A DNA stretch of 58,474 nt from the IMG/VR virus record IMGVR_UViG_3300032083_001532, positions 1-58,474 of that record. One strand, given 5' to 3'. The position numbers and the translations under genes were made by a program. The DNA comes from a virus (taxonomy: Duplodnaviria > Caudoviricetes). The notes under the pieces are model-generated. The model searched no databases. It worked only from the letters and a program-made list of their open reading frames with translations, and had not been told where the DNA came from. Shown here one piece after another: positions 4,238 through 58,474 of the stretch; positions within the stretch are counted from its first letter, which is position 1; every line of letters starts with the position of its first letter.

Positions 4238-4238
4238 A

Positions 4239-4586: not shown

Positions 4587-4589
4587 AAG

Positions 4590-33134: not shown

Positions 33135-33138
33135 AATC

Positions 33139-42357: not shown

Positions 42358-42367
42358 ACCGGAACGC

Positions 42368-43154: not shown

Positions 43155-43206
43155 ATCTACGTTATATTGACGCTATTGAAAGACGCCCCAGATTGTCTTT
43201 CTTGTT

Positions 43207-43258
43207 AGCGGGGTGGTGTTTGGGTTCCCTTCCAGTGACACCGCCCCGCTCTTTTTTT
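43207..43258 (+). terminator. + strand hairpin-terminator with a 16-nt loop antisense to the early-gene RBS motif (possible sRNA)
   Basis: 14-bp stem AGCGGGGTGGTGTT/GACACCGCCCCGCT with two G.U pairs (favouring + strand folding), loop TGGGTTCCCTTCCAGT, then C-T7. Confidence 0.7.
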
Positions 43259-43325
43259 GATCAGGGGCTTCGTCTCATTTGATTGTTACCCTGCTCCGCA
43301 CCTTACGGAAAGCAGCAGGCAGGGG

Positions 43326-43667
43326 TCAATCAAAAGGGATTTCATCGTCCAGATCAGGATCAAACCCACCAGCATCACCGAGCGAAAAGTCTTCGCCCCC
43401 GCCACCGTTGCGGGAGTTTTCGTATTCTTTCCTTTCGGTCTCACTCTGGACGTTGATGGCAAGCCCAACATAGGGTGTGCCCTTCTTGGACTTGTTCTTC
43501 CACCCGGACACCCGGATTTCATAGTCTTCACCCTTTTTGACAAGACCAATAATCTTTTTCAGGTCGTCCATTGATAGCGTGATGTTCCCTGAAAAGTCAG
43601 GCGACTTGTCGCTACGTCGGTTTTGCGGGATGAAAAGCGCCCCACCAGATTTATCATCATAAGCCAT
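43326..43667 (-). CDS. single-stranded DNA-binding protein (DUF736-like)
   Basis: GALF......KSPDFSG.I, VSGW...SKKG..Y, acidic tail ending DDEIPFD. Confidence 0.75.
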   Translation of the reverse strand: MAYDDKSGGALFIPQNRRSDKSPDFSGNITLSMDDLKKIIGLVKKGEDYEIRVSGWKNKSKKGTPYVGLAINVQSETERKEYENSRNGGGGEDFSLGDAGGFDPDLDDEIPFD

Positions 43668-43688
43668 TTGTCTTTCCTTTCTTGGCTA

Positions 43689-44510
43689 TTACGCCGCCTC
43701 TTCAAGTGAGGCGGTTCGTTCTTTGAACATGTTTGTGATTTCTTCAAGCAACGAGCTATTGCTTTCGGAGTAATATTCAAGGCGTGCCTTGTTGTCCTTC
43801 CAAATTTGACGAAGGTCAGCCTTGTTATCAACGCCCTCAATAAAGACAGCAAAGGCTTCAAGAACATCTTCATTATCTGTGGCGCTTTTGCTGATTTCAT
43901 AACCGGCAGGCTCCGGCTCGGCCTTGTCTTCAACATCGAGTTCATCAGTAACATCAAGGTCATCAATGTTCCCAACGGGCGGCTCTTCCTTTTCCAAGGG
44001 CGGCAGGCCAAACGCATCGTCGGTTTCCTTGGCGTCATCCATGGCAAATGGATCAGGCGCTTCGGTCGTTTCCTGATGGCCTTCAAAGGCGTCATGCCCT
44101 TCCGGGTCATCACCTGTTGAAAGCTGCAACAGCTTGAGGATCATGTACTTGTTAGCCCCGGTGATCGCCTTGTACAGGCCCTTGTCCCCAACACCGTTCC
44201 TGTGCCTGTCATTCCCGGCACCACCACCACCGAAGACAACTTCACTGCCACTGGCTACATGGTGAACCTTGTATTCCATGCGGACAAAGACGTTACCAAA
44301 CTTGTCGATGGGGGTGATGTCATTGACGGAAGAAATTATGACCAGCCCATATTTAAGCATCGTCGGCCTTACAGCTTCGATAACATCGGCCTCTCCGGCG
44401 AATTTATATCCGTGGAAGTCGTTGGTTCCTTTCTTTTCAACGTGGCCTATTTCACGAGCCACATGGAGTAATGCGTCATAGACGTTTGCTGTCTGTATTT
44501 CTTCGCTCAT
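43689..44510 (-). CDS. ERF-family single-strand annealing protein
   Basis: K.G.N.FHGYKFA.E.DV...VRP.M..YGL, GDK.LYKAITGA.KY......TGDDPE. Confidence 0.85.
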   Translation of the reverse strand: MSEEIQTANVYDALLHVAREIGHVEKKGTNDFHGYKFAGEADVIEAVRPTMLKYGLVIISSVNDITPIDKFGNVFVRMEYKVHHVASGSEVVFGGGGAGNDRHRNGVGDKGLYKAITGANKYMILKLLQLSTGDDPEGHDAFEGHQETTEAPDPFAMDDAKETDDAFGLPPLEKEEPPVGNIDDLDVTDELDVEDKAEPEPAGYEISKSATDNEDVLEAFAVFIEGVDNKADLRQIWKDNKARLEYYSESNSSLLEEITNMFKERTASLEEAA

Positions 44511-44752
44511 TCTTCTCTCCAGCATCGAATGCCGCCGTCAATAACACGGGTCGTGAACCTCTTGTTGTGCTTGCGTCCGTAATAGGATGCAGCGGCCCTT
44601 AGCCGAATAGCGTCCTTTGACTGACTACTACGGCATGGCAAATCAAAGTGATCGCCCACATTCATGATGTGAAACGGCCATCGTCGCCGCCTACTGGTCT
44701 CAACAGACGGAAGTGGCACGCCACTCTTGATTTCAAATTCAGTGTCATTCAT
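44507..44752 (-). CDS. small DNA-binding protein
   Basis: FEI..GVPLP......WPF..M.VGD.F.....L..AA..YG....F.TR....GIRCWR motif common in phages. Confidence 0.7.
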   Translation of the reverse strand: MNDTEFEIKSGVPLPSVETSRRRRWPFHIMNVGDHFDLPCRSSQSKDAIRLRAAASYYGRKHNKRFTTRVIDGGIRCWREE

Positions 44753-45725
44753 CGTTTCCCTTCTCTCTTTCTGGGTATAATTCCGGGTTTTCTTTCTTGT
44801 ATTGGGCGTATTGCCCACACCACCGCGACACCCGGCAGTAATCACCATCGCAGCGTGCCGGGGTTCCCGGCCTGTGTTTCAATTCGTACTGCTGGTCCTT
44901 CATGTTTTCTTCAATCCAGTCCAGCGCCTCTTTCTCTGTTTGTGCCGCCTTTGATGGCACCTTCGCCAGAGGTCCGGCCTTTGTGTAGCGGAACACCGCC
45001 CAGTCACCAGCCCGTAGCCAACGCTCTTCATCGGAGCAGGGGGGCAGCATATCCGGTTCATCAGCATAGGTTTCGTGGTCGTTATGAACATCCATATGCA
45101 TCTTCATGCGCGTGCGTATGAAGTCGGCAGTTTCTGCCATTGGCCATTTCTTGATATCCACCATGTGGACCGCAGCCTTTGGATATGTCTTTTTGGTATC
45201 GACCCGGCTTTGTTGCCAGTCACGCAGGATCGCGCAGATGCGAAGCCTTCGCACTTTATAGTTTGTGCAGGCTTCCACCAAGGCCCCGTAAACATTCAAT
45301 TGTTTGGCCCAGTCTTCCTTGTCTTTGTCTTGGTCTGCTGAAATTATGACTGACCACACAGAGGTAAACTTGTAGTCAATGATATCAACAACCGGTGTCC
45401 CGTCATCCGCCTCACCAACGTGCTGTACATCAATGGCACCCGACAAAACATAATCACCCACTTTCATGAACAGGCGTTGTTCTGTAAGATGTTCGTTATC
45501 GCCCCCGCTTTCGAGGACGTAATGGATCGCAGACCCGAACAACATCCAGACCGCTTCGGACACGTCCTGTTCGATTTCATCGTTGTGCATACGGCGCAAC
45601 GCTTTCACCTTCGGCGCATCAATAATATCGGTCACGGATTTATCGGCGGCACCCCGGCTATATTCGCGGCGTTCAAGCGCATTGATCAGTGGCGCAGGCA
45701 AGTTGAATTTGTTCGTGAATTTCAT
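44745..45725 (-). CDS. PD-(D/E)XK exonuclease (Cas4/RecB-like)
   Basis: MK.TNK.NLP, SVT.I, G.AIH, TEQRL, LSG.ID, IDYK.TSVW, QLNVY, C...E.W, RC..YC.V..WC. Confidence 0.85.
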   Translation of the reverse strand: MKFTNKFNLPAPLINALERREYSRGAADKSVTDIIDAPKVKALRRMHNDEIEQDVSEAVWMLFGSAIHYVLESGGDNEHLTEQRLFMKVGDYVLSGAIDVQHVGEADDGTPVVDIIDYKFTSVWSVIISADQDKDKEDWAKQLNVYGALVEACTNYKVRRLRICAILRDWQQSRVDTKKTYPKAAVHMVDIKKWPMAETADFIRTRMKMHMDVHNDHETYADEPDMLPPCSDEERWLRAGDWAVFRYTKAGPLAKVPSKAAQTEKEALDWIEENMKDQQYELKHRPGTPARCDGDYCRVSRWCGQYAQYKKENPELYPEREKGNDE

Positions 45726-45766
45726 GTCGGTTCCCTTCTACTGATTGGCAATTTAACAGCAATACG

Positions 45767-46141
45767 ATGAGTGGTCAAGTGTTCGAAAAGGCGTTAGCCG
45801 AATTTGTTATCATAGGGGAGCCATGTTCAAAGGCAAACAGCCGTAAGATTGTGAAGATAAAGGGAAAAACACGATCCATAAAATCAGACAAGGCGCTGGC
45901 CTATGAGAGAGACTTCCACAGTCAGTGCCCCAACCTTGATGAGGTCATCGAAGATGATGTTTGGGTAGACATAAGGATTTGGTACGCATCACGGCGTCCT
46001 GATCTGGATGAGAGCATTATACTGGATGCCATGCAAGGTCATATTTACAAAAATGACCGGCAGGTAAAGCTCAAACTGATTGTTCACAAGGGCGTGGACA
46101 AGGTAAATCCAAGAGCAGCAATAAGAGTTGGAACCCTTTGA
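45767..46141 (+). CDS. RusA-like Holliday junction resolvase
   Basis: GEP.SKANSR, SRRPDLDES.ILD.MQG.IY.NDRQV, DK.NPRA. Confidence 0.85.
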   Translation: MSGQVFEKALAEFVIIGEPCSKANSRKIVKIKGKTRSIKSDKALAYERDFHSQCPNLDEVIEDDVWVDIRIWYASRRPDLDESIILDAMQGHIYKNDRQVKLKLIVHKGVDKVNPRAAIRVGTL

Positions 46142-46142
46142 A

Positions 46143-46382
46143 ATGAAAGAACTATATCGGTCCATCATCAAGCAGGCAGCAAAAGACCTTTGCGGCAAAA
46201 ACGACAAAGACAGAATGGAGGTTGTTCGGTGGATGACCGGAGAGGATTTTGAGGAAACCTGCGTTGGTGCCGACGTAAAACCTGAACTGCTGAAAAAGTT
46301 TTTTGTGGCTATGGTGAAGGTGCCGTTGGATGAACGGAAGAGTTATTCCCAGTCACTAATCAGCGTTTTGGATGCATCGTAA
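46143..46382 (+). CDS. hypothetical protein
   Basis: LYRSII.QA..D...W...DFEE.C..A pattern; follows RusA. Confidence 0.6.
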   Translation: MKELYRSIIKQAAKDLCGKNDKDRMEVVRWMTGEDFEETCVGADVKPELLKKFFVAMVKVPLDERKSYSQSLISVLDAS

Positions 46383-46590
46383 CCCCGCCCGAAAAAAAAT
46401 CGGGCGGGTTATATATATAATAATATTATTATCTCTTACTGTAGATGATAATAATCTCTATCAGACTGTATTTATTATAAGCCCTTCACTTTATGTGAAG
46501 GGCTAATATAAGATATCTCATACTGTAGTTATCCCCATACTATATAATCTACTGTTATATATATAATAATATTATTTATATAACACGCGT
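46381..46590 (+). other. AT-rich putative replication origin
   Basis: extremely AT-rich island with 23-bp direct repeat GTTATATATATAATAATATTATT (46408-46430, 46554-46576), central inverted repeat AGCCCTTCAC/GTGAAGGGCT (46480-46504), repeated ACTGTA, GC hairpin at 46384-46408; just upstream of primase-helicase. Confidence 0.55.
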
Positions 46591-46711
46591 GCGTAGCAAA
46601 AATCGGGCCAAAAATAATTGCGGCACTACCTCAATTTTTCCTTGCAACGGACAGGCCCCTAGTGACAGGATCGCAGATGCGGCTTGGACTGATTAACTGG
46701 AAGGGAAAAAC

Positions 46712-48595
46712 TTGTCTACTACTTCACACGACAGCACACTTAACGACTTTGCTGAAACTTCACTACGCGATACAATTGTCTCAAAAGATTTGAGGCAAGG
46801 CCAGCATCGGCTCATCTGCCCGAACTGCTCACCGGGGCGAAAAAAATCATGGGAGCAATGCCTTTCCGTCTACATTGAACCGCACCGGGCGATGTATTCC
46901 TGCAAGCACTGCGCGTGGGAAGGCTCTGTGCCGCTGCGGGATAACATCGTTAATTTCAGGCCCAAGCAGCCGAAGGAAGAGGATGAAAAGGCGCTTGATC
47001 TGGGCTTCGACATCAGCCCACCCACGGAAAAACAATACCAGTACATGGAAAGCGTCAGGCATATACCGCGCACCACCGTCGATCACTACGAGCTATGCTC
47101 TGCCCAAAAATGGTTCCGGGCACACAAAGAAGAACGAGAGGCGTTAGGGTTCCCTTACCGTTCATCAGCAGCATCAGAGTTTCACGCCATCAAGTGGCGC
47201 AGCGACAAGAAGCAGTGGACACAGGATGGGGGTGCAAAAAGCTTCTTCGGCCTCAAGCAGTTTGAGCGGTCAGCATCCGGCCCCACCGAGGAAGACCCGC
47301 TCATCATCACGGAGGGTGAATTCGATGCGCTGGCAGCGCACGCAAGCGGATACCATCACGCCCTAAGCGTACCGAACGGGGCACCCATGAAACTAAGCAC
47401 ACAGAAGAAGGCTCCCGGCGACGACCGGAAATACCATTTCTTGTGGGCTGCTAGGAACTTGCTGGAAAATTGTGACAGGGCATATATTGCTTGTGATGCT
47501 GACGACCAAGGGGAAATCCTTGCGGAGGAACTGGGGCGCAGGATTGGCAAGATTAAATGCTGGCGCGTTAAGTACCCAGAGGACTGCAAAGACCTGAACG
47601 ATGTGCTGGTCAAGCACGGGAAGGATGAGGTCCAGAAGTGCATAAAGGATGCGGAACCCTTCCCGGTGTCAGGGCTTTACACGGTTGATGATTACCGTGA
47701 TCAGGTTAATGATCTTTATGAGAATGGCTTTGCCAAAGGGGCCACTATTGGCATTCCCGAAGTTGATGAGTTGATGACGATTGTTCCCGGCATGATGACG
47801 GTCGTGACCGGGGTGCCTTCGCACGGCAAATCAACTTTTGTGGACTACATGATGTTCCGTCTGGCTCGGGACCATGGGTGGCGGCACGCGGTCTGTTCAT
47901 TCGAGAACCCGCCATCCTTGCACATCGCAAAGCTGGCGCAGACGTTTACGCGCAAGCCTTTCTTCGATGGGCCGAACGAGCGAATGTCCCAATACGAAAA
48001 GGCGCTGGCTTTGGATTGGGTCAAGGATCGCTTTGTGTTCATCAGCGAGAGCGACGGGACGCCGCCTACGGTCGATAGCGTGCTTGAGCGTGCGAAGACT
48101 GCGGTCATGCGTTACGGGATAAACGGTCTGGTGATTGATCCGTATTCGCGCCTGAACGTCAAGGGCGAAGACGACACAGCAGGGATCGGTGACATGCTCA
48201 CGAAGGTGCAGGCGTTCGCAGCAGCGCACAGCGTCCATGTGTGGTTCGTGGCACACCCGAAGAAGCCGCAGTTTCCTGATGGGTATGTGCCAGCAGGCTA
48301 TGATATATCGGGGTCGGCCCACTGGTACAATCACACTGATTTTGGGGTTACCGTTCATCGCCCGGACAGGGAGAGCGCCAACGTAGAGGTACACGTTTGG
48401 AAGGTACGATGGGCAAACCTGCTTGGTAAACAGGGGCAAGCTGATATAAGATACGAACCTGTGACCAATCACTATTCGCAAAGGAATGGGTATGGCTACC
48501 AAGCGGAAGAGGAAGCGCAAAGTCCAGAGGAAGCCTTACGGCAGCGCGTCATCGACGGGGAGGCGCTCGAAGACCTCCCAGCATATCTCACTTGA
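46712..48595 (+). CDS. T7 gp4/Twinkle-type primase-helicase
   Basis: Zn finger CPNC...CKHC, TOPRIM ITEGEFDAL / D.D.QG / KDLND, Walker A TGVPSHGKST, VIDPY, VAHPKK, YDISGSAHW; TTG start after ACTGGAAGGGAAAAAC. Confidence 0.93.
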   Translation: MSTTSHDSTLNDFAETSLRDTIVSKDLRQGQHRLICPNCSPGRKKSWEQCLSVYIEPHRAMYSCKHCAWEGSVPLRDNIVNFRPKQPKEEDEKALDLGFDISPPTEKQYQYMESVRHIPRTTVDHYELCSAQKWFRAHKEEREALGFPYRSSAASEFHAIKWRSDKKQWTQDGGAKSFFGLKQFERSASGPTEEDPLIITEGEFDALAAHASGYHHALSVPNGAPMKLSTQKKAPGDDRKYHFLWAARNLLENCDRAYIACDADDQGEILAEELGRRIGKIKCWRVKYPEDCKDLNDVLVKHGKDEVQKCIKDAEPFPVSGLYTVDDYRDQVNDLYENGFAKGATIGIPEVDELMTIVPGMMTVVTGVPSHGKSTFVDYMMFRLARDHGWRHAVCSFENPPSLHIAKLAQTFTRKPFFDGPNERMSQYEKALALDWVKDRFVFISESDGTPPTVDSVLERAKTAVMRYGINGLVIDPYSRLNVKGEDDTAGIGDMLTKVQAFAAAHSVHVWFVAHPKKPQFPDGYVPAGYDISGSAHWYNHTDFGVTVHRPDRESANVEVHVWKVRWANLLGKQGQADIRYEPVTNHYSQRNGYGYQAEEEAQSPEEALRQRVIDGEALEDLPAYLT

Positions 48596-49088
48596 CTTCG
48601 GCACCCCAGAGGCTCGCAATCACAACACGATGCGTGTTGAGAATGTTGACCCCAAGGGCAACATTGTTCGGATCAGGAACCTAGATCAGACAGAATTTGA
48701 CAGGCTGGCCCTTGTTGGGGATATAACGCCAGACCAGTTTCAAGCGGGTCAGCAGTTCTCAAGCGCGTGTTGGAAGGCAGGGGGTTTTGTGAAGGCTGTG
48801 AATTGGGGGCGCACAGGTGGGAGCGCAGGTAACAGCCACGAAAGGCGAGCGGTCTTGTCGGCTATGGCGGCAGCAGAACCGCTTCACTACATGCAGAAGA
48901 ATTGCGGCAGGGATGTCGCGGGGTTGGTCGTTCGGGTGGCTATAGACCAAGAGCGATGCACGGGTAAGGCGCTGCAAGATTTACGGGGGGGGTTGGATGC
49001 GTTGGTGCGGTACTATTCCGCAGCCATAAAACGCAAACAAAAAAAGAGGGCGGCTGCTTTCGCAGCCGCCCTTTCTTCGGTCGGTTGA
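48492..49088 (+). CDS. DUF6456-like (GafA C-terminal-like) putative transcription regulator
   Basis: DRL...G.IT..QFQAG..F ... W ... LR.GLD.L..YY pattern; overlaps helicase 3' end; AAGGAA RBS. Confidence 0.55.
   Translation: MATKRKRKRKVQRKPYGSASSTGRRSKTSQHISLDFGTPEARNHNTMRVENVDPKGNIVRIRNLDQTEFDRLALVGDITPDQFQAGQQFSSACWKAGGFVKAVNWGRTGGSAGNSHERRAVLSAMAAAEPLHYMQKNCGRDVAGLVVRVAIDQERCTGKALQDLRGGLDALVRYYSAAIKRKQKKRAAAFAAALSSVG
49036..49078 (-). terminator. intrinsic terminator ending the early (- strand) region
   Basis: perfect AGGGCGGCTGC-TTTC-GCAGCCGCCCT stem; A-run on its left (U-tract on - strand), TTCTT on its right. Confidence 0.75.
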
Positions 49089-49131
49089 GTAACCTGCTAT
49101 TCAGGAAGTGCAATCCACCATGTAGTTGGGT

Positions 49132-49503
49132 TTATCCCCCATAGTTTTTTCCTTCCATTTCCTGAACGTCATCCTGTGCTTCGTACATGCTGTTCCATAC
49201 TTGGTGCAACATGCGCATCCGGTAATGATGGTCATCATCAAATTGGGACGCTTTGGCGACACGGTTCTTGAAGTTGGTGTAAGTGATGTTGTTGATTTCC
49301 TTTGTCAGTTCTTCAACAACGATTGGCTTGTCGATAAAGGCGCGGAACCGATAGTCCGTCCCGGCACCCTCAATTACATTTGCGTTTGTGTGCCCAAAGA
49401 TACTTTCGATGTCTCCGGGGAACCGGGCGCGGACGCAGAAGCGTTCGCTGTTATTCTTGTCTTCGACAACAGACAAGACTGCGTTTTCAGTAAATAACCA
49501 CAT
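49132..49503 (-). CDS. conserved hypothetical phage protein
   Basis: MW.F.....SVV.........VRAR..GDIE.....TDYRFRA......I.Y.NFK pattern. Confidence 0.75.
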   Translation of the reverse strand: MWLFTENAVLSVVEDKNNSERFCVRARFPGDIESIFGHTNANVIEGAGTDYRFRAFIDKPIVVEELTKEINNITYTNFKNRVAKASQFDDDHHYRMRMLHQVWNSMYEAQDDVQEMEGKNYGG

Positions 49504-49529
49504 ATGTTTTTCCTTCCAGTGATTTGACG

Positions 49530-49558
49530 TTTGTATAGTAAAGTAGTAGCCGTGTCAA
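49530..49558 (-). promoter_or_regulatory. sigma70-type promoter
   Basis: TTGACA-17 bp-TACAAA on - strand upstream of the 49503 ATG. Confidence 0.55.
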
Positions 49559-49718
49559 GGGCTATACGCAAAGGCGTGCTAAAGTTTTATTGGTTTTCCC
49601 TTCCAAGTTAATAGTGATTGGTCACAAATAACCTAACGAATAAATGGCAGGGACCGGGATTAGCGGTAGCGAACCGCCTACCCGGCTTACGACACCCAGT
49701 TGCCGACACCGCGCAGTG

Positions 49719-49895
49719 TTAGCGTTTCATGTTCATGTCTACCTGATCTTGTTCAGTGCGTGACAGGGACACCTTTAGTTTGTTGTTGCTGGCTTCGACA
49801 GTTACGCTCCAACCATCTTGGCGCAACTCATCAATTGCTTGCCCAAAGGGTTCTAGCGCGGCGTTTACTTTGTCTACCGCCTCTTGCCTGTTCAT
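49719..49895 (-). CDS. small hypothetical protein
   Basis: GGAG RBS then MNRQEAVDKVNAALEPFG; 58 aa. Confidence 0.55.
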   Translation of the reverse strand: MNRQEAVDKVNAALEPFGQAIDELRQDGWSVTVEASNNKLKVSLSRTEQDQVDMNMKR

Positions 49896-50139
49896 TGGTT
49901 TTTCTCCATCCCAACAGAATGTTGGTGCTATAGAAGTCTCTGGAACGACCGTCTCTCTCGTACAATAGCGCAACTCTAGCGCACGGCACCACACGAAAGC
50001 GAGCGCCAAATACACGAAAGCGCATATTGGTGAAACGTTCGCCGGGACATGCTCGTGCTAGTCGTTTCAGTTCATCAAGGGTGATTGGCCTGCCCCTTTT
50101 GGGGACAGGCTTTTCAAGGATGCGATTATACATCCTCAT
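49831..50139 (-). CDS. Arg-rich hypothetical protein
   Basis: ATGA-coupled to the 50136 stop; 3' end overlaps the next gene. Confidence 0.45.
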   Translation of the reverse strand: MRMYNRILEKPVPKRGRPITLDELKRLARACPGERFTNMRFRVFGARFRVVPCARVALLYERDGRSRDFYSTNILLGWRKTNEQARGGRQSKRRARTLWASN

Positions 50140-50804
50140 TGTGATCCCACAGCGTCAAGCAGGGCTTTATCGGGAAGCGGCGCACCCCAGACAGTTTCTG
50201 GTTTTGTTCCAGACGTGGTTAGTTCTTTTATTAAGGCGTATGTGGCTTGACCGCGCAGGTCCATCAGCCAATCATAGGCTTTGCTGTTTCGCCAGCCGAC
50301 ATCATTACAGGCTTGATATTCAAAGCAATTTACGCTTGAGATAACCTGAGTTGGTTCAAATGCTGGCCAGTAATTATTTTCAAGAACGCTTATAGCGGCT
50401 TCCTTGTAGTTCGCTGAAGCAACTTCATCCTGTCCGTACCGGGCCTGCATGGAAAGCTGATTGCTTTCGATTAGCATGTCCAGAATTCTGTGAATGCTTT
50501 CCCCTGTATAGGGGCGATCAGAATAGCTTTCGGACGCCCGGACAAGGTACGCCAGATGGTGCGGGTCTACATAAAATGCGAATGGTTTGATCTCCTCTTT
50601 ACTCTCCACAACTTTCCAGTTTTTATCAGTGATGACGTAGGGCCTCTCAAAGCCATCCAGCGCCTCAAAGGTTTCTTTGAGTGTTGGGAACCCATCCCAT
50701 ACTTGTGGCGTGCCGCCCCACCTTTTCAGGTAGCGCAAGTGGTCGTTTACGGAGCCTTGCTCGTAATCTCCATCAGACCAGAACACAAAATAGTTCAAGT
50801 TCAT
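50136..50804 (-). CDS. hypothetical phage early protein
   Basis: repeat-element RBS; N..S..ARY ... C.EYQAC...W..S.A pattern. Confidence 0.7.
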   Translation of the reverse strand: MNLNYFVFWSDGDYEQGSVNDHLRYLKRWGGTPQVWDGFPTLKETFEALDGFERPYVITDKNWKVVESKEEIKPFAFYVDPHHLAYLVRASESYSDRPYTGESIHRILDMLIESNQLSMQARYGQDEVASANYKEAAISVLENNYWPAFEPTQVISSVNCFEYQACNDVGWRNSKAYDWLMDLRGQATYALIKELTTSGTKPETVWGAPLPDKALLDAVGSQ

Positions 50805-50914
50805 GGTTCTTCCTTCCAGTTAAAATGTTATCAGTCACAATTTGCGACTAGGGTTATTGAAAATAACCTAACGAATGGGGTGGTGCGCAGTAGATGTACC
50901 GCGCACCACCAGCG

Positions 50915-51154
50915 TTACCCGATCCCCAAAGCGTCAGCAACCTTGTCTTTGTTCATAACGTCGGTGCGGCTCATGTAGACAGCGGGACCGTCCAATACGG
51001 CCTTAAAGCCTTCGCCGTGGGCACGCTGGGCGTACCATTGGCCATGGTCGTTGCAGTTGATATAGGCCACTAGGTTCGACATTGAGCCAGTGTGACCCGC
51101 ATACATGTGGTGCTGATTGCGGTGGCTGTTCAGGATTATGTAGTTCGTGTCCAT
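50915..51154 (-). CDS. small early protein
   Basis: ATG directly after ACTGGAAGGAAAACCA. Confidence 0.65.
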   Translation of the reverse strand: MDTNYIILNSHRNQHHMYAGHTGSMSNLVAYINCNDHGQWYAQRAHGEGFKAVLDGPAVYMSRTDVMNKDKVADALGIG

Positions 51155-51249
51155 TGGTTTTCCTTCCAGTTGATAGTGATTGGTCATAAATAACCTAACC
51201 GGGTAGCAGTTAGATCACTTACGTTCTCTAACTGCGTCCCCGAATGATT

Positions 51250-51828
51250 TTAGTTCATGCCAAGTTTGTCTTTGGCGTCATGGATGGTGGAAATCAGGCG
51301 TTGTCTTAGGGCCTTGTCGCCACGGTCCATAACCGCCGCAAGTTGCTCTGCCTCTGGCAGATAGACCTTCGCAAAGTCAGGGTCGTGATCGGCAATATCA
51401 AGTGTGTTGTCTATCAAGTCAGCATACTTGATGGTTTGTGTCGCATAGCCTTGAGAAGAGGCTCGGACAGCTTCGGCAGCTTTACGGGCGGGCCTGTTCA
51501 TGTCAGGATACGCTTCGTGTGTGTAACGATCCGTCAGATCATCCACCCATTCAGCCACAATCGGCCCAAATTGTTCATCAATTTCACGCCTTGTCACTCC
51601 GCAATCTTCGATTGTGTCATGCAAGACTGCGGCACAAAGCATAGCTTGGTTTGCCAAAGCTATGTGCTTCATGTCGTGGCCTGAGTTTATAAGCGTGTGT
51701 GCCACGTTCAGCGGATGCTGAATATATGGCGTGTCTGTGTATTTGCGGACTTGCCCATCATGGACTTCGGTCGCAAAATCAATAGCACGCTTAAATCCCG
51801 GCGAAGCCGTTATAGGATATGTCGTCAT
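51250..51828 (-). CDS. HD-domain hydrolase, SpoT/Mesh1-like small alarmone hydrolase
   Basis: A..FA...H.GQ.RK....PYI.HP..VA, AAVLHDTIEDC, V..LTD, IK.AD..DN. Confidence 0.85.
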   Translation of the reverse strand: MTTYPITASPGFKRAIDFATEVHDGQVRKYTDTPYIQHPLNVAHTLINSGHDMKHIALANQAMLCAAVLHDTIEDCGVTRREIDEQFGPIVAEWVDDLTDRYTHEAYPDMNRPARKAAEAVRASSQGYATQTIKYADLIDNTLDIADHDPDFAKVYLPEAEQLAAVMDRGDKALRQRLISTIHDAKDKLGMN

Positions 51829-51907
51829 GGTGTTTTCCCTTCCAAGTAAATAGTGATTTGTCATAAATTGACTAACGGGGACAGGGTGTTAGCCCTGCCC
51901 CCAATGC

Positions 51908-53437
51908 TTAGGCAGCGATTTGTGAGACATCTTCCTCGAAGAGGATGATCTGGCCAAAAGGCACCGGGTACTGGCCAGCCTTCAAGGCTTTGCCATAGCA
52001 CCCATGATGCTTGCGCCAGTTGACGCCGTTTCGATCAGACATCCAGTAGACTGGATAGTCTGGAGCGTCCCCAAAGTCACCATCGTATGCTATCAGGTCA
52101 GTGAAGTAGATTGCGCCCTTGATGTTGGCGCATTCTTCGTTGAGGTAATCGAACCCCGGATAAAACCGGGTGCCACCACCGCCAACGGGGTTGAATTTGA
52201 TTTCTTCACCAAGGGTGAAGGTATCAACCCCCTTCACGTCATAATCCACGTAGAGAACGTGGACAGTCTGTGGCGCAGCTTCTTCGACAAGTTCGTTGAG
52301 CTTTTCTTCGAAAAGCGCAAGCAAGTCTTCGTTGATAGATGCCGACGTGTCGATCAGCACTGCCAGTTCGCCTGCGTCTTCCTTCACAATGGAAGGAAGA
52401 TATACGTCACTGGCAATCCGGCGACGATTGGGACGGTTCCAAGTCGTAGACTTGGGGAACATCTGCGAGAATGCTTCCTGCAACTCGTCGCGCCAGTCGA
52501 TGGTCTTGACCTTCAACGCCTCATTAACGATGCGTTGAATGCCGCCATCACCGGCACCCTTGGTTGCGTTCTGCACTTGCGCAGCCTGCACCACGTTGAT
52601 CTGGGTGTCTTTTTCAAGCTTGTCCAGATCAGCCTGTGAAAACGGTTTACCGTCGTCATCGCATGGTGGCAGGATGTCCCCAAAGAAGTCGTCGTCTCCA
52701 AAGGTAACATCGTCACCTTCGGTGTCGTCGTCACCATTGCCGCCACTGTCACTGTCGTCACCTTCGGTGTCGTCGTCACCGGAGCCACCGTTACCTTCGG
52801 TATCGGCGTCTTCGCTGTCGTCGTCATCGTTGCCGGGATCATTACTGTTACCAGTAATATCTTCGTCGTCTTGGTCGTCACCTTCGGTGTCGCGATCACC
52901 AGACGGCTTGCCGTGGTAGCCACCTTCGCCATCTTCGCAACCTTCGCCATCTTCGCCATCTTCGCGCGGCTTGCCCCACGGTTCGGCAATAGGCTCTTTA
53001 GCCTTCCACAAGATACTATAAGTATCTTCTGCGGAACCGTTCAGTTCAGGGTCGTAAAGGCCCTTGCCGTGGGGGAATTCAAACAGCGGCTTACCCTTGC
53101 TATCTCTGGCATCCACAAGGATGCTGTTGATAGAGTAGTCCGTTGCCTCACCCCATGTGTCACGATCACGATTGCCCATCCGCACAGAGTGCAGGCAGGC
53201 AATATGTGACAGTTCATGTGCTGCCAGAGTAACAACCTCACCGATGGTGAGGATGTCGAGAAAATCCGGGTTGTAGTATACCCGGACGCCATCAGTCGCC
53301 GCTGTTTTGATAGGAAAACCGCCAAGGGTTTTCTTTGCTATCACATACGGCACCTTGACAGCCAAGGTTCCATAGAATGGCGAATGACGGAGCAAGCGAG
53401 TGTAAGCTTCGCTTAATTTTGCTTCTGGTGTCATCAT
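51908..53437 (-). CDS. DUF2201-type metallopeptidase + vWA domain protein
   Basis: TAATDG..VYYNP.F, AHELSH (HExxH), A.D..IN, acidic linker, W.RPNRR, IDTSASI (MIDAS), GGGGT.F, YFTD. Confidence 0.9.
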   Translation of the reverse strand: MMTPEAKLSEAYTRLLRHSPFYGTLAVKVPYVIAKKTLGGFPIKTAATDGVRVYYNPDFLDILTIGEVVTLAAHELSHIACLHSVRMGNRDRDTWGEATDYSINSILVDARDSKGKPLFEFPHGKGLYDPELNGSAEDTYSILWKAKEPIAEPWGKPREDGEDGEGCEDGEGGYHGKPSGDRDTEGDDQDDEDITGNSNDPGNDDDDSEDADTEGNGGSGDDDTEGDDSDSGGNGDDDTEGDDVTFGDDDFFGDILPPCDDDGKPFSQADLDKLEKDTQINVVQAAQVQNATKGAGDGGIQRIVNEALKVKTIDWRDELQEAFSQMFPKSTTWNRPNRRRIASDVYLPSIVKEDAGELAVLIDTSASINEDLLALFEEKLNELVEEAAPQTVHVLYVDYDVKGVDTFTLGEEIKFNPVGGGGTRFYPGFDYLNEECANIKGAIYFTDLIAYDGDFGDAPDYPVYWMSDRNGVNWRKHHGCYGKALKAGQYPVPFGQIILFEEDVSQIAA

Positions 53438-53558
53438 GGTTGATGTTTCCCTTCCAGTAATTGTTACCAGTCACAATTTGTGACCGGGGCTATTGAAAAT
53501 AACCTAACCGGGATGCGGTTGGATCACTTACGTTCTCCAACCACAGCCCGAATGATTT

Positions 53559-54452
53559 TTAGGTGGATTTGCCGCCACCCGACAAAAAGATGCTTGCCAT
53601 TTCGGCAACATCTTCTGCGGCATCAGCCGCTTTGTCACGAAGATCAGGATCGGATTTCAATTGATCCCTAGAATAGGGAGCAATGTCATCCATGATCCGC
53701 TTTGCGGCCCTTGTCAGGGCCGGGTCGTTGGTCAGGTTCAGATGGGGCAGGGCTTCGGCCAGATCAACCACATGGTTGATTGTGGCGTTGTAGATGTCCC
53801 GCTTGCCACCGTTGCCGGTGTCCTGCCCATAATTGCGCAGGGCGTCGGCAAGATTGCCGACCAGATCGACCACCTTTGTGGCAGGCTCCAAAACAGCGTC
53901 GTTCAGACGCTGGTTCAGCTTTTCGTTCACCGATGCTTCGATAGCGGCGAGAGCATCCTTGGATGCTTTCACGCGGATGTCGTCGGTGTCTGGCACGGCT
54001 TGGTATTCGACTTCACAGACAAATTTGTCCCGAATGTCATCCTTTGAAGGATAGTCCCCTTCATTAAACGCGGTATTCAAGATCAATCTTGCTTCGTCAA
54101 CGGCTTCGCCGTACCCGACTACGAACTGGTCAGCAGCACTATCAAATGCCAGTTTGGCATCCTTGATTGCTTCGTCGCATTTGGTGAATGCGGACATCGG
54201 CAATAGCCGCCAACCACTTTCGTCCCATGGCAGGGTCCATTCTTTCATGGCACGCCGGACATGTTCGCTATGCGTTTTCATGTCCTTGAGTGATTGCACA
54301 TCGACCAGCGGCTTACTGACTTTGAAGTCAGCGCTTGACTGGTGTTTGCTCTGCACTTCCGTGGCAAGCTGGTCATCCAGCTTGCGACCAGACCATTTTT
54401 TGATAGTCACCTTTACCAAGGTGCATCGTTGAGATAAGTCTTTCACGATCAT
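53559..54452 (-). CDS. DUF3150-like protein
   Basis: LV.V.I..WSG.KLD, SK.L, TLPW...G.RLLP, F...DYP, LNLT.DP.L; sits between AAA and vWA genes. Confidence 0.7.
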   Translation of the reverse strand: MIVKDLSQRCTLVKVTIKKWSGRKLDDQLATEVQSKHQSSADFKVSKPLVDVQSLKDMKTHSEHVRRAMKEWTLPWDESGWRLLPMSAFTKCDEAIKDAKLAFDSAADQFVVGYGEAVDEARLILNTAFNEGDYPSKDDIRDKFVCEVEYQAVPDTDDIRVKASKDALAAIEASVNEKLNQRLNDAVLEPATKVVDLVGNLADALRNYGQDTGNGGKRDIYNATINHVVDLAEALPHLNLTNDPALTRAAKRIMDDIAPYSRDQLKSDPDLRDKAADAAEDVAEMASIFLSGGGKST

Positions 54453-54559
54453 GGTTTTTTCCCTTCCAGTTTAGTGACCAGTCACAGTTTGTGACCGGGA
54501 CCAGTGTAAATGGCCTAACCGGGACAATGCTAATGCATTGCCCCGAATACCTTCAAATA

Positions 54560-55582
54560 TTATTGGTTGCCGAATTCGTTCCGCATTTTGACGCCCCAGT
54601 CACTTTCAAGAATTGAAGCATTCAATGCTTCAATCATTTCGACAGTGACCGATTGGAATTCACGGGGAAGACGTTCCACGTATGCTCCGAATGCGTCAAC
54701 TGTTTCGTCTTTGATTGCGTTAGCAATCAAGCCGGTAACAGCATAGAGTGCCGATGGGTCCGTTGGAACCAAGGCACCCTGCGGGTTGTTGCGAATTTCA
54801 GCCGGTGTTGGCAAGCTATCAATGGTCCGTAGGAACCCAATGAATTCCTTGCTTGCGGCTTCGCCAAGATAGCCAAGAATACCCTCTTCGAGTTCATTCT
54901 GTGGCATATCAAGCTGCATAATGTCAGAGACATTATGCCATGTCCGCAATGTCGGGAATGTGTCAGCTTTCGGATCGAAATCCACCAGCAATTCCGGGCG
55001 ACCTTCGGTGAACACCAGCACTTCCGGCACCAAGTTTAACTTGGTAGCCAGTGCCCGGAAACAATCGGTAGAGGCGACCACATCAATGTGGTTCCACCGG
55101 GTTTTGACCTGTGTACCCATTTCATGGGTGCCTGCCTTGTGTTCCCGTTTGTTGGATGCTCCAACAAATGACACGCCTTTAGGCAGCGGATATTGGCCGA
55201 TACGACGATCCATCACCATCGTGCCAGCCGCATTCTGCGTCATCTGGAACGCTTGCGAGAATTCATCCATAAAGATGATGCCCTGCCAGTCAGGCTCTTT
55301 GTGGAGTTCCACAAAGCGACCGTTTAGTTCATCCCAAAAGGCAGGTGGATACCACCTAGTGGTGCCATCTTCGACCTTTGGCGTGCCGTTGAAGTCAACA
55401 GCGTCCATCATGGACAGATCGCAAACGATCAGTCCATAATCGGGGATGTGGTGCGTCCTGATGTGCTTCGCCACATTGCGAACAGTCGTCGTTTTCCCGA
55501 TACCGGGAGCCGACCACATAAAGACGTTCTTGCGAGCAAGAACCATGGCCGTGATGTAGTTTTGTGTTTGGCTAATAAGCAT
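54560..55582 (-). CDS. MoxR/AAA_5-type AAA+ ATPase
   Basis: WSAPGIGKT Walker A, D..D..G.P, IIFMDE Walker B, ASN, R..H, FPT.RTW. Confidence 0.9.
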   Translation of the reverse strand: MLISQTQNYITAMVLARKNVFMWSAPGIGKTTTVRNVAKHIRTHHIPDYGLIVCDLSMMDAVDFNGTPKVEDGTTRWYPPAFWDELNGRFVELHKEPDWQGIIFMDEFSQAFQMTQNAAGTMVMDRRIGQYPLPKGVSFVGASNKREHKAGTHEMGTQVKTRWNHIDVVASTDCFRALATKLNLVPEVLVFTEGRPELLVDFDPKADTFPTLRTWHNVSDIMQLDMPQNELEEGILGYLGEAASKEFIGFLRTIDSLPTPAEIRNNPQGALVPTDPSALYAVTGLIANAIKDETVDAFGAYVERLPREFQSVTVEMIEALNASILESDWGVKMRNEFGNQ

Positions 55583-55744
55583 GGCTTATTTTTCCCTTCC
55601 AGTAGTAGTGACCAGTCACAATTTGAGACTGGGGTTATTGAAAATAACCTAACGAATAACTTAACAAAATCAGTGACCTAGCCCCCTATCACCGTAAGGT
55701 TCTAGGGGGCGTAGGCACTGGAAGGGCACCATTGCCCAACGTTA

Positions 55745-56035
55745 CTAGCCTACGGCTAGTTCAGCCTGTCGCCGTGAGGCTCTGGCCTTGTTCAGGTTTT
55801 CAGCCGATACGATAGAGTATCGGCGCTGATGCACTTCGCCTTCGGAGCCAAGCACCGGGAACTTGATTGTTCCATTCTTTTCCATCTGGAAAAGAACGCG
55901 CATGGCACCCTTGGTGGTTCGGTATGGCTCATTATCCAAGTGTAACGCCCATTCAAAAGCCTTGGCTTTGCGGTTGTAGCACTTGAACTTGCCGGAGTTC
56001 CAGCCGCCAAATCCATGCTCAACAATGTAGAACAT
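55745..56035 (-). CDS. small early protein
   Basis: GGGAG RBS before ATG 56035. Confidence 0.6.
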   Translation of the reverse strand: MFYIVEHGFGGWNSGKFKCYNRKAKAFEWALHLDNEPYRTTKGAMRVLFQMEKNGTIKFPVLGSEGEVHQRRYSIVSAENLNKARASRRQAELAVG

Positions 56036-56045
56036 TGTGTTCTCC

Positions 56046-56231
56046 CTATCTGTTGATAAAGTCGTTGATTGAGGCACCTTCTTCGGAGAAGAAGCCTACG
56101 TTCATCACGTCAACACCGCCAAGCCAAGCCCCAAACAATGAGGCGGTCAGGCCCAAGAGGATAAACAAGTTTATCCCGCATAGGACCGCAAGCGTTGTTG
56201 CCAGTGGTGTGACATATTTAATGTTTTTCAC
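56046..56231 (-). CDS. small membrane protein
   Basis: GTG start after repeat-element RBS; long hydrophobic stretch. Confidence 0.6.
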   Translation of the reverse strand: MKNIKYVTPLATTLAVLCGINLFILLGLTASLFGAWLGGVDVMNVGFFSEEGASINDFINR

Positions 56232-56298
56232 GGTTTGTTCCTTCCAGTTGGTAATAACCTAACCGGAACAAGGCGTTAGCCTTGTCCCGAATGCAGTA

Positions 56299-56550
56299 TT
56301 AGTGGGCTGGCAGCACTTCGGCTACCACATCGACCACTTCGGCACCCTTATAGGGTGAGCCGTAGAGGTCGGCACAGCCGCTAAAGCGGCCTTCAAAATC
56401 ACCGTCTTCGTCACGGACAACATCAATTACCCGCAGGCCAGCAAGATAGACTTCTATCTTGCTAATCTCATTAACGGTTAAGCCTTCGGCGTCACCGTTA
56501 ATCAGGTAGCAGATTGTTGCCATAGGTACTGTCACTTCAGTGGTGTTCAT
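56299..56550 (-). CDS. small early protein
   Basis: repeat-element RBS; P...CYLINGD..GL...E pattern. Confidence 0.7.
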   Translation of the reverse strand: MNTTEVTVPMATICYLINGDAEGLTVNEISKIEVYLAGLRVIDVVRDEDGDFEGRFSGCADLYGSPYKGAEVVDVVAEVLPAH

Positions 56551-56617
56551 GGTGTTTTCCTTCCAGTTGGTAATAACCTAACCGGAACAACACGTTAGTG
56601 TTGTCCCGAATGCAGTA

Positions 56618-56827
56618 TTAGTCTATCCAAGGGGTGAACTCTCGTTCACCAGCAAAGATCAGCAGGTACTGTTCCCTGTAAGGGGACAGATTGAGCAGGG
56701 CACCAAATTCAAATCCAAGGATGTTGAATTTGAGTGTGCGAGTGGTCTCATAGACCAGTTCCTTAGTGTTGTTTCCCTGTTCGTCAGTATCCTTACGGAT
56801 AAAGTGTTGAGTATGTTTGTTGTACAT
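56618..56827 (-). CDS. small early protein
   Basis: AAGGGAG RBS before ATG 56827; flanked by repeat elements. Confidence 0.6.
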   Translation of the reverse strand: MYNKHTQHFIRKDTDEQGNNTKELVYETTRTLKFNILGFEFGALLNLSPYREQYLLIFAGEREFTPWID

Positions 56828-56884
56828 TCTATGTACTCCCTTTTGTTTGAAATAACTAAACCGGAACAAGGGGTTACAAGTAAC

Positions 56885-57315
56885 CCCCTGTTCCGAATAA
56901 ACAGCGTTTAACAGCCTGAAAAATAGGCTACGCTGTCCTTTTCTGGAAAAGGAAAGGATTGCACTTCCTGCCATGCCTCCGGCATTATTGGGATTGTCTT
57001 TGCTGCGCACAGTCCAGAGGACCATGCGAGGCAAAGCCAGCGCCCACACGGAGCATGTGTCGTCACGCACAGCAGGTTACTCGAACGGGCCGAGGTCCAA
57101 CTTCCGTCCGGCACCCTTTAGGGTAACCGACAGACAAGGCTTCACACGAAGCAGTCAATGTCCCACTTTGGAATGGTCTTTGGCCTCTCTCTCATGTGAA
57201 TACCAGAGGTATCGTGTAAGAGACAAACCGCATCAGCAATCGCCGCGGACCGAAGGTATTTATGCCGTGGCCCCTTCGGAGGGCCGTGGCTCTCGACGTT
57301 GCCGCCGAAAGCCCC
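56885..57315 (-). ncRNA. long structured leader / candidate ncRNA
   Basis: no credible ORF; successive stems with GCAA and cUUCGg tetraloops and G.U pairs on the - strand; begins just after a TTGACA promoter. Confidence 0.55.
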
Positions 57316-57318
57316 ATT

Positions 57319-57347
57319 ACTAAACCAAACGGTAAAGCATTTGTCAA
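57319..57347 (-). promoter_or_regulatory. candidate early promoter
   Basis: TTGACA-17 bp-TTTAGT on - strand; -35 overlapped by inverted repeat CAAGCCC-TTTA-GGGCTTG (57345-57362). Confidence 0.5.
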
Positions 57348-57560
57348 GCCCTTTAGGGCTTGTTTGATTGCCAAGCCTTAAAAATGGCGATTTTTGTGGT
57401 CCTTGCGGGATCATGATGGTTTCCTGCGACAATGCGTGAAAAACCTCTGGTTTTCGCACGTTGTCATGTGAACCGTGGTGCAGGATTGGTGACGGGTCAC
57501 AATTCGTTGCCGTTCTTGGTGGTTGGGGTTGAGGTTTTGGGCCTTTCACACGGGTCTGCC

Positions 57561-57623
57561 TAGGCGTGCACACGTAGGCAGAGGCGTGCAGGCGCGTGAT
57601 GCGTAGGCAGAGGCGTGCACACA
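57561..57623 (+). repeat. short direct repeats upstream of terS
   Basis: CGTAGGCAGAGGCGTGCA at 57573-57590 and 57602-57619; AGGCGTGCA three times (57562, 57582, 57611). Confidence 0.7.
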
Positions 57624-57764
57624 AGGGGGGATTGCAGCGGGAAGAATAGGGGGTTAAGATTGGTGCGCGGTAAGTAAACGCGAAATCTTGTGCGCGGGAT
57701 TGGAACTCGATCATATGTTGCTTCGGTGTCCAGTGTGCCCGCATAACCCCGAAGGGGCGGTTTT

Positions 57765-58358
57765 ATGGATGACATCCAAGACAAAGCATACAGGGCTTTA
57801 GAAGACATAGAGATAGTAAGAGCAGATAGTAATCCACCAGAGGTGGACGCTGAAAAGCTCAATAGTTCCACGGCACTACCCCCGAAGGGGAAGGGTAGAA
57901 AGAGACTAACTAAGCAGATGAACGACTTCGCAGGCAACATCCTTAAAGGGATGAGCCAGAGTGAAGCCTACAAAGCTGCATATAATGCAGAGAACATGAA
58001 GAAAGCTTCGATTGCGACTGAGGCTTGGAAGCTCATGCGACATCCTGAGGTGGCCCAGATCATAGGGGCAGGGATGGAGAAGAAGAGGGAGGTTAATAGC
58101 ATCAGCGGGGATATGATGCGCTCTAAGGTGTTGGAACGCTTATGGTTTGAGGCAACCGAAGCCCGCAATGATGGTGCACGTATCAGAGCACTGGAGCTAC
58201 TAGGTAAGGTGCCAGAAGTCGGACTGTTCACTGCAAGTGAAAAGGAAAAGCCCAACGATATCAAGGCATTGGAGCGCATTGTCGGAGACAAGCTGAAAGC
58301 ATTAGGGCTGGATGCTACTATCGTGGACAGCAATAACCCTTCTAAATCAAAGATTTAG
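57765..58358 (+). CDS. terS: terminase small subunit
   Basis: LT.QM..FA..I..G.SQSEAYK.AY........A.KL...P.V, then VL..L..EA......RIRALELLGK...VGLF. Confidence 0.85.
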   Translation: MDDIQDKAYRALEDIEIVRADSNPPEVDAEKLNSSTALPPKGKGRKRLTKQMNDFAGNILKGMSQSEAYKAAYNAENMKKASIATEAWKLMRHPEVAQIIGAGMEKKREVNSISGDMMRSKVLERLWFEATEARNDGARIRALELLGKVPEVGLFTASEKEKPNDIKALERIVGDKLKALGLDATIVDSNNPSKSKI

Positions 58359-58474
58359 CGAACATATGACTGGTCACCATATATGTAGCGCGGTCCCTAC
58401 GGGACTATGCGCGTTGTGCTGCCCCCACCCCCCCCTGCTGCCAGCGATCACCTGCCCCCTCAACTGAGTTGGAT

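Follow-up and report, generated by a model that had tools for sequence, protein, structure and literature searches.

A repeated hairpin and ribosome-site element in the early operon of an uncultivated marine phage, and gene replacement beside it in natural relatives

What purpose might be served by a composite intergenic sequence that is repeated ahead of most genes of a phage early operon? This question is raised by IMG/VR virus record IMGVR_UViG_3300032083_001532, which was analysed in its entirety (58,474 bases, hereafter the window; completeness estimate 96%) and which represents an uncultivated marine phage of 58 kb that is not recognisably T4-like. On its minus strand, 10 of the 13 open reading frames (ORFs) of the early operon (56827 to 49132) are preceded by an element that combines a hairpin with a ribosome-site box, which bears out the statement of an initial annotation that such elements front most early genes. 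We find that these elements form a repeat family, that their shared hairpin is under selection and is biased towards folding in the mRNA sense, and that genes have been replaced beside them in natural relatives. We hypothesize, with moderate confidence, that they could serve as RNA-level insulators of the early operon that double as linkers for homologous recombination.

Read along the mRNA, an element consists of the stop codon, (C)ATTCG, a hairpin termed H1, a linker, an optional module, the box and the start codon. The shared type of H1 has a G/C foot (UCGG...CCGG) and a tail, UUAGGUUAUUU, that constitutes an interrupted U tract. The linker is GGTTAGGTTATTT (written GTTAGGTTATTT in the full plan), and the box is ACTGGAAGGRAA (ACUGGAAGGRAA in the mRNA), placed 4-9 nucleotides (nt) ahead of the start codon. 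The optional module is lacking in E1 (56828-56959), E2 (56551-56617) and E3 (56232-56298), the latter two being short forms made up of H1, linker and box. A short module, TT[A/G]TGAC-NN-ATCACTAT, is found in the medium forms E7 (51829-51907) and E8 (51155-51249) and in E10 (49504-49718), which has hairpins, the linker, the palindromic motif of this module and two boxes. The long forms E4 (55583-55761), E5 (54453-54559), E6 (53438-53558) and E9 (50805-50914) carry a longer module that adds hairpins H2 (GGTTATT-TTC-AATAACC) and H3 (CCAGTCACAA-A-TTGTGACTGG); in E5, the arms GGTTATT/AATAACC of H2 are changed to GGCCA/TGGTC. All ten elements lie on the minus strand, and the three junctions that have no element are a 10-nt gap (56036-56045) and two overlaps.

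A repeat finder recovers the element as families D3, D5, D7, D9, D10, D12 and D13, of which D10 and D12 include E2, and D13 includes E6. In the whole record, the linker sequence GGTTAGGTTATT occurs seven times at no more than one mismatch, always on the minus strand within 49627-56583. Some details of the initial annotation require amendment. It had counted about 11 elements, whereas there are 10, E10 having two ribosome-site boxes; it had also treated the hairpins as one related family. The UCGG...CCGG type is indeed shared by seven elements (E1, E2, E3, E5, E6, E7 and E8), but the hairpins of E4 (GCCCCCTA...TAGGGGGC), E9 (14 bp) and E10 are unrelated to it and stand upstream of a contiguous ATTCGTTAGGTTATTT, which in E4 is followed by H2, H3, the palindromic motif and the box. 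In addition, the palindromic module had been overlooked, as had the ribosome-binding site that E1 possesses. This site, GGGAG, precedes the ATG at 56827, and E1, which stands after a non-coding leader rather than after a gene, further consists of H1 at 56861-56896 (15-16 bp) and the variant linker GGTTTAGTTATTT. As an annotated unit, E1 spans 56828-56920.

The case for selection on H1 rests on covariation among the paralogous copies. When H1 from E1, E2, E3, E5 and E7 was examined over 12 pairs, 59 of 60 cells were found to be paired, and six of the pairs were changed on both sides. The covariation score was 0.517 versus 0.245 ± 0.062, and none of five measures was reached in any of 500 shuffles. 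Sliding the partner by 1-3 columns reduces H1 pairing to 38-52%. Inspection of individual copies agrees with what had been reported: E2 and E3 are identical at 61 of 67 positions, with four of the six differences being compensatory, and the basal C-G pair is flipped to G-C in E7, whose linker has diverged to GTTAGTCAATTT. Elements E6 and E8 were left out of the pair counting because MAFFT misaligned their lower stem, and their stems were instead compared by reading. They have a common 12-nt loop, E6 representing an H1 class with the loop GAACGTAAGTGA, and between their 9-bp upper stems there are two double changes and a single change. The covariation claimed for this pair is correct.

Orthologous sequences yield the same result. 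A 1709-nt contig from sequencing run X3 carries the E1 stem with the C-G pair 56895+56862 converted to A-U and the A-U pair 56892+56865 converted to G-C, and it lacks one G of a G-run (56888) together with one opposing C (56870). These six stem differences amount to three pairwise compensatory changes, and, among the differences listed, those at 56898 and 56911 in E1 fall outside the stem. H1 is therefore under selection both among paralogues and between orthologues, and the covariation noted initially is upheld.

The strand on which the hairpin is formed can be judged from its stability. Compared with its complement, the minus-strand RNA of each of the nine isolated H1 hairpins folds more stably, by 1.2-6.5 kcal/mol, and H3 is more stable in the mRNA sense in four of four cases. 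The initial statement that G.U pairs favour folding of the minus strand is in keeping with this. Minimum free energy folds contain seven G.U pairs among 114 H1 pairs, and these would become A-C mismatches on the opposite strand. For entire gaps, folding z-scores range from -2.7 to -5.6 in nine of the ten, the exception being E10 at -1.1.

Evidence that genes change beside the elements comes from natural relatives. Parts of the early-operon stretch are contained in 19 DNA runs from 12 studies, labelled seawater, estuary, sediment or freshwater, and no RNA run is listed among them. Contigs of four runs from four studies were compared with the window at 85% identity or above, the comparison being confined to listed differences; the variant contigs are short Logan contigs with a depth of 2-7x. 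All four runs exhibit different genes or gene numbers beside the same elements, which directly supports the initial suggestion of a cassette array shuffled by recombination.

The 1709-nt contig of X3 (record 14) is collinear with the window and matches it at 57307-56830, 56268-55904 and 55761-55263. Between the first two segments, 561 nt (56269-56829) that hold genes 1 and 2, E2 and the upper portion of the E3 hairpin are replaced by 232 other letters. The replacement extends from 3 nt ahead of the gene 1 ATG to the 3' arm of the E3 H1, where the joint at 56268 falls. The joint at 56830 is not a repeat artefact, since no second copy of the E1 linker exists in the window. Another 136 letters stand in for 55762-55903. 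The position at which this second replacement ends, 55761, is located 14 nt ahead of the stop codon that precedes E4, and runs X2, X3 and X8 each differ upstream of it, making four contexts when the window is included. This variation sets the 5' edge of E4, whose intergenic span is 55583-55744.

A similar arrangement is found at E8, where X3 and X8, from estuary and sediment studies, share loose ends on both sides of the 42-nt core that runs from linker to box (51162-51203), and where a different ORF opens directly after the E8 box in these runs. Motifs taken from four of these X3 and X8 flanks were sought in the whole window at up to three mismatches. Three gave no match, and the fourth gave one 3-mismatch match in the DUF2201 gene, no more than in shuffles. 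In X3, similarity at E7 is confined to an island whose flanks are skipped. At E10, an X3 loose end at 49595 follows the first box and leads into an intact ATG and a longer frame, with the contig continuing for more than 700 nt. In the window, the first box is followed by CCAATAAAACTTTAG (box region 49574-49607), an ATA-start gene remnant, a TTGACA...TATACA promoter-like site, the second box and the ATG at 49503. Given the ATA and an early TAG in the window and the intact frame in X3, what E10 retains is only a remnant of a gene that has been lost.

X3 shows mosaic identity along its length. Relative to the window, it has 1 difference in 1636 positions at 52855-54490, 9 in 499 at 55263-55761, 25 in 365 at 55904-56268, 57 in 409 at 49595-50003, and 63 differences plus 19 gaps in 478 at 56830-57307. 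Eight of 16 joint ends and 10 of 20 loose ends fall within elements or no more than 30 nt from them, an area that makes up approximately 21% of the 8.4 kb. The idea that gene changes are bounded by elements holds for the joints at 56268/56830, 55761, 51162/51203 and 49595, but roughly half of all breakpoints lie elsewhere, which makes the elements favoured and not exclusive junctions.

Two parts of the element also occur outside the array. At up to two mismatches, the box ACTGGAAGGRAA occurs 37 times, compared with 8.7 ± 3.0 expected. Ten of these copies are within operon gaps, all on the minus strand; nine stand 4-9 nt from a start codon, and the tenth is the first box of E10, which is followed by ATA rather than ATG. 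The box is unpaired in the predicted folds of eight of the ten gaps, being paired in E4 and partly so in E9. An exact copy, ACTGGAAGGGAA, lies ahead of the TTG start of the primase/helicase gene (46696-46707, plus strand). A second exact copy at 43225-43236 (minus strand) has no start codon nearby and is situated in a 170-nt gap, rich in hairpins, within the Erf/exonuclease operon. Moreover, E4 holds an inverted copy of the box, ACTGGAAGGGCA, at 55717-55728 on the plus strand, and the complement of this copy, CCCTTCCAGT, is predicted to be able to pair with the E4 box 115 nt downstream. The inverted copy may be either a device that sequesters the ribosome site of the ATPase gene or a relic of an inverted cassette.

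The second part is the palindromic motif TRTGAC-NN-RTMAC (TRTGACNNRTMAC), which occurs 10 times compared with 0.14 expected. It is present in seven of the ten elements (E4 through E10), always 5-12 nt upstream of the box. Three further copies are found at 57489-57501 (minus strand, TGTGACCCGTCAC) in the regulatory region that precedes the operon, at 48460-48472 (plus strand) 13 nt ahead of the ATG of ORF 48486-49088, and at 58365-58377 (plus strand) directly after a small-terminase-like ORF. Because its 2-nt spacer cannot form an RNA hairpin, we read the motif as a putative DNA site for a dimeric regulator. A Pfam search of the small early proteins returned no candidate for such a regulator, the only match being DUF6926 in gene 2. 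Near the copy at 57489-57501, the minus strand at 57570-57630 contains iteron-like direct repeats of GCACGCCTCTGCCTACG, with two copies and a partial third.

How might these parts work together? Transcription of the operon would most likely begin at a promoter ahead of the long leader and be carried out by the host RNA polymerase. H1, with its 10-16 bp, G/C foot and interrupted U tract, may act as a leaky terminator and/or as a 3'-end stabiliser, and would thereby insulate each cistron. A box kept unpaired could provide uniform and strong translation starts, analogous to the start-associated sequences (SAS) of mycobacteriophages, and the palindromic motif would be bound by its dimeric regulator. 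The same 40-90 nt recur every 0.2-1.6 kb and therefore offer homology patches for the exchange, gain and loss of genes between relatives. Such exchange would proceed by homologous recombination, probably via the Erf, exonuclease and RusA proteins of the phage itself; the first two had been annotated correctly, and RusA is encoded in addition. Since these proteins are encoded and the record contains no match to PF00589 or PF00239 that would indicate an integrase or resolvase, homologous recombination is the economical reading.

Several points weigh against this hypothesis. We infer the roles in termination, processing, stabilisation and translation entirely from sequence. H2 folds weakly (-1.3 to -3.8 kcal/mol) and was given little weight for this reason, the exact conservation of the linker GGTTAGGTTATTT is left without a functional explanation, and the palindromic motif could be a promoter element outside the model used in our promoter scan. 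With regard to gene exchange, the other half of the breakpoints are inside genes (e.g. 50003, 52011 and 55904). For six of the eight joints, what lies between is marked as not known, and these joints may reflect divergence below 85% identity rather than replacement. Short, low-depth de Bruijn contigs also tend to break at repeats, and the replacing letters themselves were not read. Finally, searches of the IMG/VR, JGI metagenome and GTDB genome collections yielded no full-length relative, which precludes a gene-by-gene map of gain and loss.

Could each gene instead form its own transcription unit? This would be so if the elements were strict terminator-promoter cassettes of the promoter-early stem-loop (PeSL) type, perhaps dependent on an activator acting via TRTGAC-NN-RTMAC. 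In the T4-type phages RB49/phi1, PST and nt-1, a PeSL is described as a cassette that runs from a stop codon to the next start codon and unites a strong sigma-70 promoter, a Shine-Dalgarno sequence and a GGGG...CCCC stem-loop in which G-T pairs occur. PeSLs delimit indels between relatives and give rise to mini-circles, and both terminator and promoter activity have been demonstrated for them (PMC2839356, PMC4122927). As characterised in these sources, they resemble the elements studied here in being repeated composite intergenic units of about 70-100 bp that reach from stop to start codon, in combining a Shine-Dalgarno sequence with a GGG...CCC stem-loop that includes G-T pairs, and in clustering among small accessory early genes. 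In both systems, indels or replacements between relatives are element-bounded, and no dedicated recombinase is known from these accounts for either. The earlier characterisation of the elements as like T4-type cassettes but different in sequence is thus apt.

Some features of the motif would suit such cassettes: it is oriented with the gene, its spacing to the box downstream is fixed (about 5-12 nt), and further copies are found in the main regulatory region and at two sites on the plus strand. E10 contains the TTGACA...TATACA site, and three distant loci with the same ATPase module (L026, L046 and L079) repeat TTGACA-N17-TATAAT promoters, some of them right behind a hairpin. However, a scan of 42000-58474 for sigma-70-like sites returned 15 sites, of which none is in any element, and this total equals the shuffle expectation (mean 15.9). 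TTGACA sites with imperfect -10 hexamers are visible by eye at about 57345 and inside E10, and these failed the scan. Furthermore, E2 and E3 have only 26 nt from hairpin to box and do not carry the motif.

As to the terminator half of such a cassette, H1 stems are GC-rich enough for an intrinsic terminator, but the tail UUAGGUUAUUU is a poor U tract and not a plain U run, and a terminator-like scan passes H1 of E1 only (1 of 10). In contrast, operon ends use canonical terminators: an 11-bp GC stem followed by T7 at 49047-49072 (minus strand) ends the early operon, and a second T-run terminator is found at 46384-46408. The H1 hairpins do not appear, therefore, to be full terminators. Compared with PeSLs, the elements are without a sigma-70 -35/-10 pair or an AT-rich upstream tract, the separate E10 site aside, and have instead a conserved linker, an extended ribosome-site box and an optional palindromic motif, in sequences that are unrelated. 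They also reside in a 58-kb genome that is not T4-like, and are known from sequence alone. Because no promoter was detected in them and because of this genomic context, we do not class the elements as PeSLs, and we consider it unlikely that each gene is its own transcription unit.

An equally improbable alternative is that the hairpins are RNA-processing sites, at which a host or phage endoribonuclease would cut to release monocistronic mRNAs with protective terminal hairpins. The location of the hairpins between cistrons, their mRNA-sense bias, their compensatory evolution and the A/U-rich single-stranded linker behind the stem are all as this model would have them, and RNase III is known to cut between T7 early genes. 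RNase III substrates are longer and internally looped, however, whereas the stems here have 10-16 bp and are mostly perfect, and none matches an Rfam family. Processing is compatible with, rather than exclusive of, the insulator and linker roles that we favour.

The early RNase III sites of T7, put of HK022 and nut of lambda are structured RNAs between or ahead of early cistrons in operons read by the host polymerase. Similarly, the first terminator-like hairpin here is preceded by a long structured non-coding leader (56897-57320, minus strand) that lies between the TTGACA promoter-like site at about 57345 and E1. No sequence or Rfam similarity to these RNAs was found, and the H1 stems are shorter and simpler than the T7 sites. 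The leader (~420 nt) folds at -173.6 kcal/mol (z -4.63; 0 of 100 shuffles). Its X3 relative has many indels of 1-2 bases, so the leader is not coding; it may represent either a small-RNA gene or an RNA that acts in cis, for example as an antiterminator. Curated Rfam models gave no match at gathering score over the whole record, and two sub-threshold matches to the leader at a permissive threshold (E 0.28-0.43) were taken as chance. We also considered N4-type hairpin promoters read by a virion RNA polymerase, an idea prompted by the 3083-amino-acid ORF at 33106-42357 (plus strand). Domain matches in this ORF are to NUDIX (residues 1090-1199) and to the LPD38 large polyvalent protein domain (residues 2760-2957), with none to RNA polymerase. 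Its product is probably an injected polyvalent protein and not a virion RNA polymerase, which makes promoters of this kind unlikely, and they were rejected.

It is very doubtful that the elements are selfish miniature palindromes, akin to repetitive extragenic palindromes (REP) or miniature inverted-repeat transposable elements (MITE), that have spread into gaps and have no role for the phage. In seven elements, H1 interrupts a sequence that is contiguous in the three others (ATTCG|GTTAGG versus ATTCGTTAGG), and this can be read as insertion. Nevertheless, the copies are in one orientation, confined to one operon and fused to a ribosome site at a fixed distance from the start codon, no copies are found in other records of the three collections, and an orthologous hairpin has been kept by compensatory change. 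Least credible of all is site-specific cassette recombination at hairpins acting as attC-like folded DNA sites, because, although the array resembles a cassette array and GTTAGGT in the linker fits the integron core consensus GTTRRRY, the 96%-complete genome has no tyrosine or serine recombinase, no inverse core pairs with GTTAGGT, the G.U pairs favour coding-sense RNA, and the junctions are spread over element parts and genes instead of one crossover point.

Other comparisons concern the box and the motif. The SAS and extended SAS (ESAS) of Cluster K mycobacteriophages have a function that is still described as unknown (PMC3203893). As presented there, they share with our box an asymmetric sequence of 12-13 nt in which a Shine-Dalgarno core has conserved flanks that rRNA pairing does not explain, a position a few nt (3-7 bp for SAS) before start codons, a single orientation and a restriction to the non-structural part of the genome. 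They are likewise mostly found at gaps greater than 50 bp, and about half or more are preceded by an imperfect inverted repeat. The two systems differ in that SAS/ESAS consist of GGGATAGGAGCCC plus 17-bp inverted repeats in phages of Mycobacterium, whereas ACTGGAAGGRAA and TRTGAC-NN-RTMAC come from seawater and estuary metagenomes, and in that the account drawn on mentions no terminator-like hairpin or linker attached to SAS/ESAS and describes no part for them in gene exchange. By analogy, then, the box can be said to be placed as an SAS is. Intergenic repeats of halovirus HF2, which are archaeal AT-rich promoters, are also repeated viral sequences conserved in position, but no hairpin or ribosome-site module is described for them in the cited account (PMC8707807).

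The palindromic motif invites comparison with stoperators. Stoperators are asymmetric 13-mers bound by the monomeric immunity repressor of temperate phages. Those of Cluster A mycobacteriophages, as outlined in the source cited, are similar in being many copies of a short protein-binding-like motif in intergenic gaps, oriented with transcription (PMC9283540). The motif here is palindromic, in contrast, and neither a repressor nor an integrase is recognisable. We regard stoperators, T7 RNase III sites, put/nut and integron attC as the more distant analogies.

How widely is the element distributed? A blastn search found no GenBank phage that matches the region. The ATPase protein has no match in IMG/VR, and among 5.8 billion proteins its nearest relative is 34% identical, besides one fragment that is 100% identical. 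Matches to the element pattern in IMG/VR (3), JGI/ENA metagenome contigs (15) and GTDB genomes (2) were dismissed as chance, being single and mostly within coding sequence. One of the JGI/ENA loci (L096) resembled the element and was rejected because it fronts a bacterial reductase gene. An alignment-based scan yielded 80 distant loci, from all of which the linker and box are absent. A keyword search of the literature returned no description of this element in a marine phage, although such a search cannot establish absence from print.

Certain distant loci do have repeats of their own in front of genes. In L040, whose ATPase is about 30% identical to that of the window, a box AAACGGAGTCACC occurs in five copies within 3780-7800, ahead of the ATPase gene, the next two genes (310 and 510 amino acids) and two further starts. 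At least three of these five copies follow a GC-rich hairpin, and two of the hairpins have a common loop and swapped outer stems. Loci L026 and L046 carry TTTTGGTTGACA-N17-TATAAT promoters in five and six copies, some directly behind a hairpin, and L079 has the same type of promoter followed by a box, TTAAGGAGCGGA, in four copies. Comparable repeats were not found in L008, L009 or L010. These observations suggest that lineage-private punctuation of early operons is common, with parts that differ.

The genome surrounding the array is arranged in blocks. Terminase, portal and structural genes occupy the plus strand, and this block closes with the 3083-amino-acid ORF. One minus-strand block (45725 to 42368) encodes the exonuclease and Erf, and a RusA-like gene lies just past it on the plus strand (45767-46141). 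The second minus-strand block is the early operon, whose products include a MoxR-type ATPase, a DUF3150 protein, a DUF2201 metallopeptidase/VWA protein and an HD phosphohydrolase; its remaining ORFs are small and, gene 2 apart, without a Pfam family. The T4-specific core is not seen among the annotated genes (terminase, portal, Erf, primase/helicase and polyvalent protein). Between the RusA-side terminator and the primase gene (46400-46600), an AT-rich gap contains two copies of AATAATATTATTATATATATAAC and other repeats, which makes it a candidate for a replication origin or a region of divergent promoters. An ORF of 377 amino acids that has collagen-like 9-nt periodic repeats (GGN AAY CCN type) at 23385-24308 on the plus strand presumably encodes a fibre protein. 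The DUF2201 gene has a repetitive acidic tract rich in Asp, Gly and Glu with 45-nt periodicity (52690-52900, minus strand), within which X8 displays a 45-nt length polymorphism at 52709-52755.

A broader interpretation can be offered tentatively. The locus could be an integrase-free cassette system in which a portable expression and insulation element is swapped by Erf, exonuclease and RusA between co-infecting relatives. The 420-nt leader and the ten leaky hairpins would then make up an operon controlled by antitermination, and the L040 parallel would reflect a general, lineage-specific punctuation code. We hold this to be possible, with considerably less confidence than the insulator and linker roles proposed above.

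Regulatory cassettes that double as recombination linkers are the best-supported mechanism for orderly shuffling of phage accessory genes, and they have been documented mainly for T4-type phages. The present case adds a comparable, promoter-less architecture that is built from different parts in an unrelated, uncultivated marine phage, and population data tie it to gene replacement. The array provides a test bed in which one hairpin exists in ten natural variants, alongside three combinations of modules and a private ribosome-site box. It bears on a question that SAS/ESAS also pose, namely why conservation around starts extends past the Shine-Dalgarno core, and on how phages insulate their cistrons.

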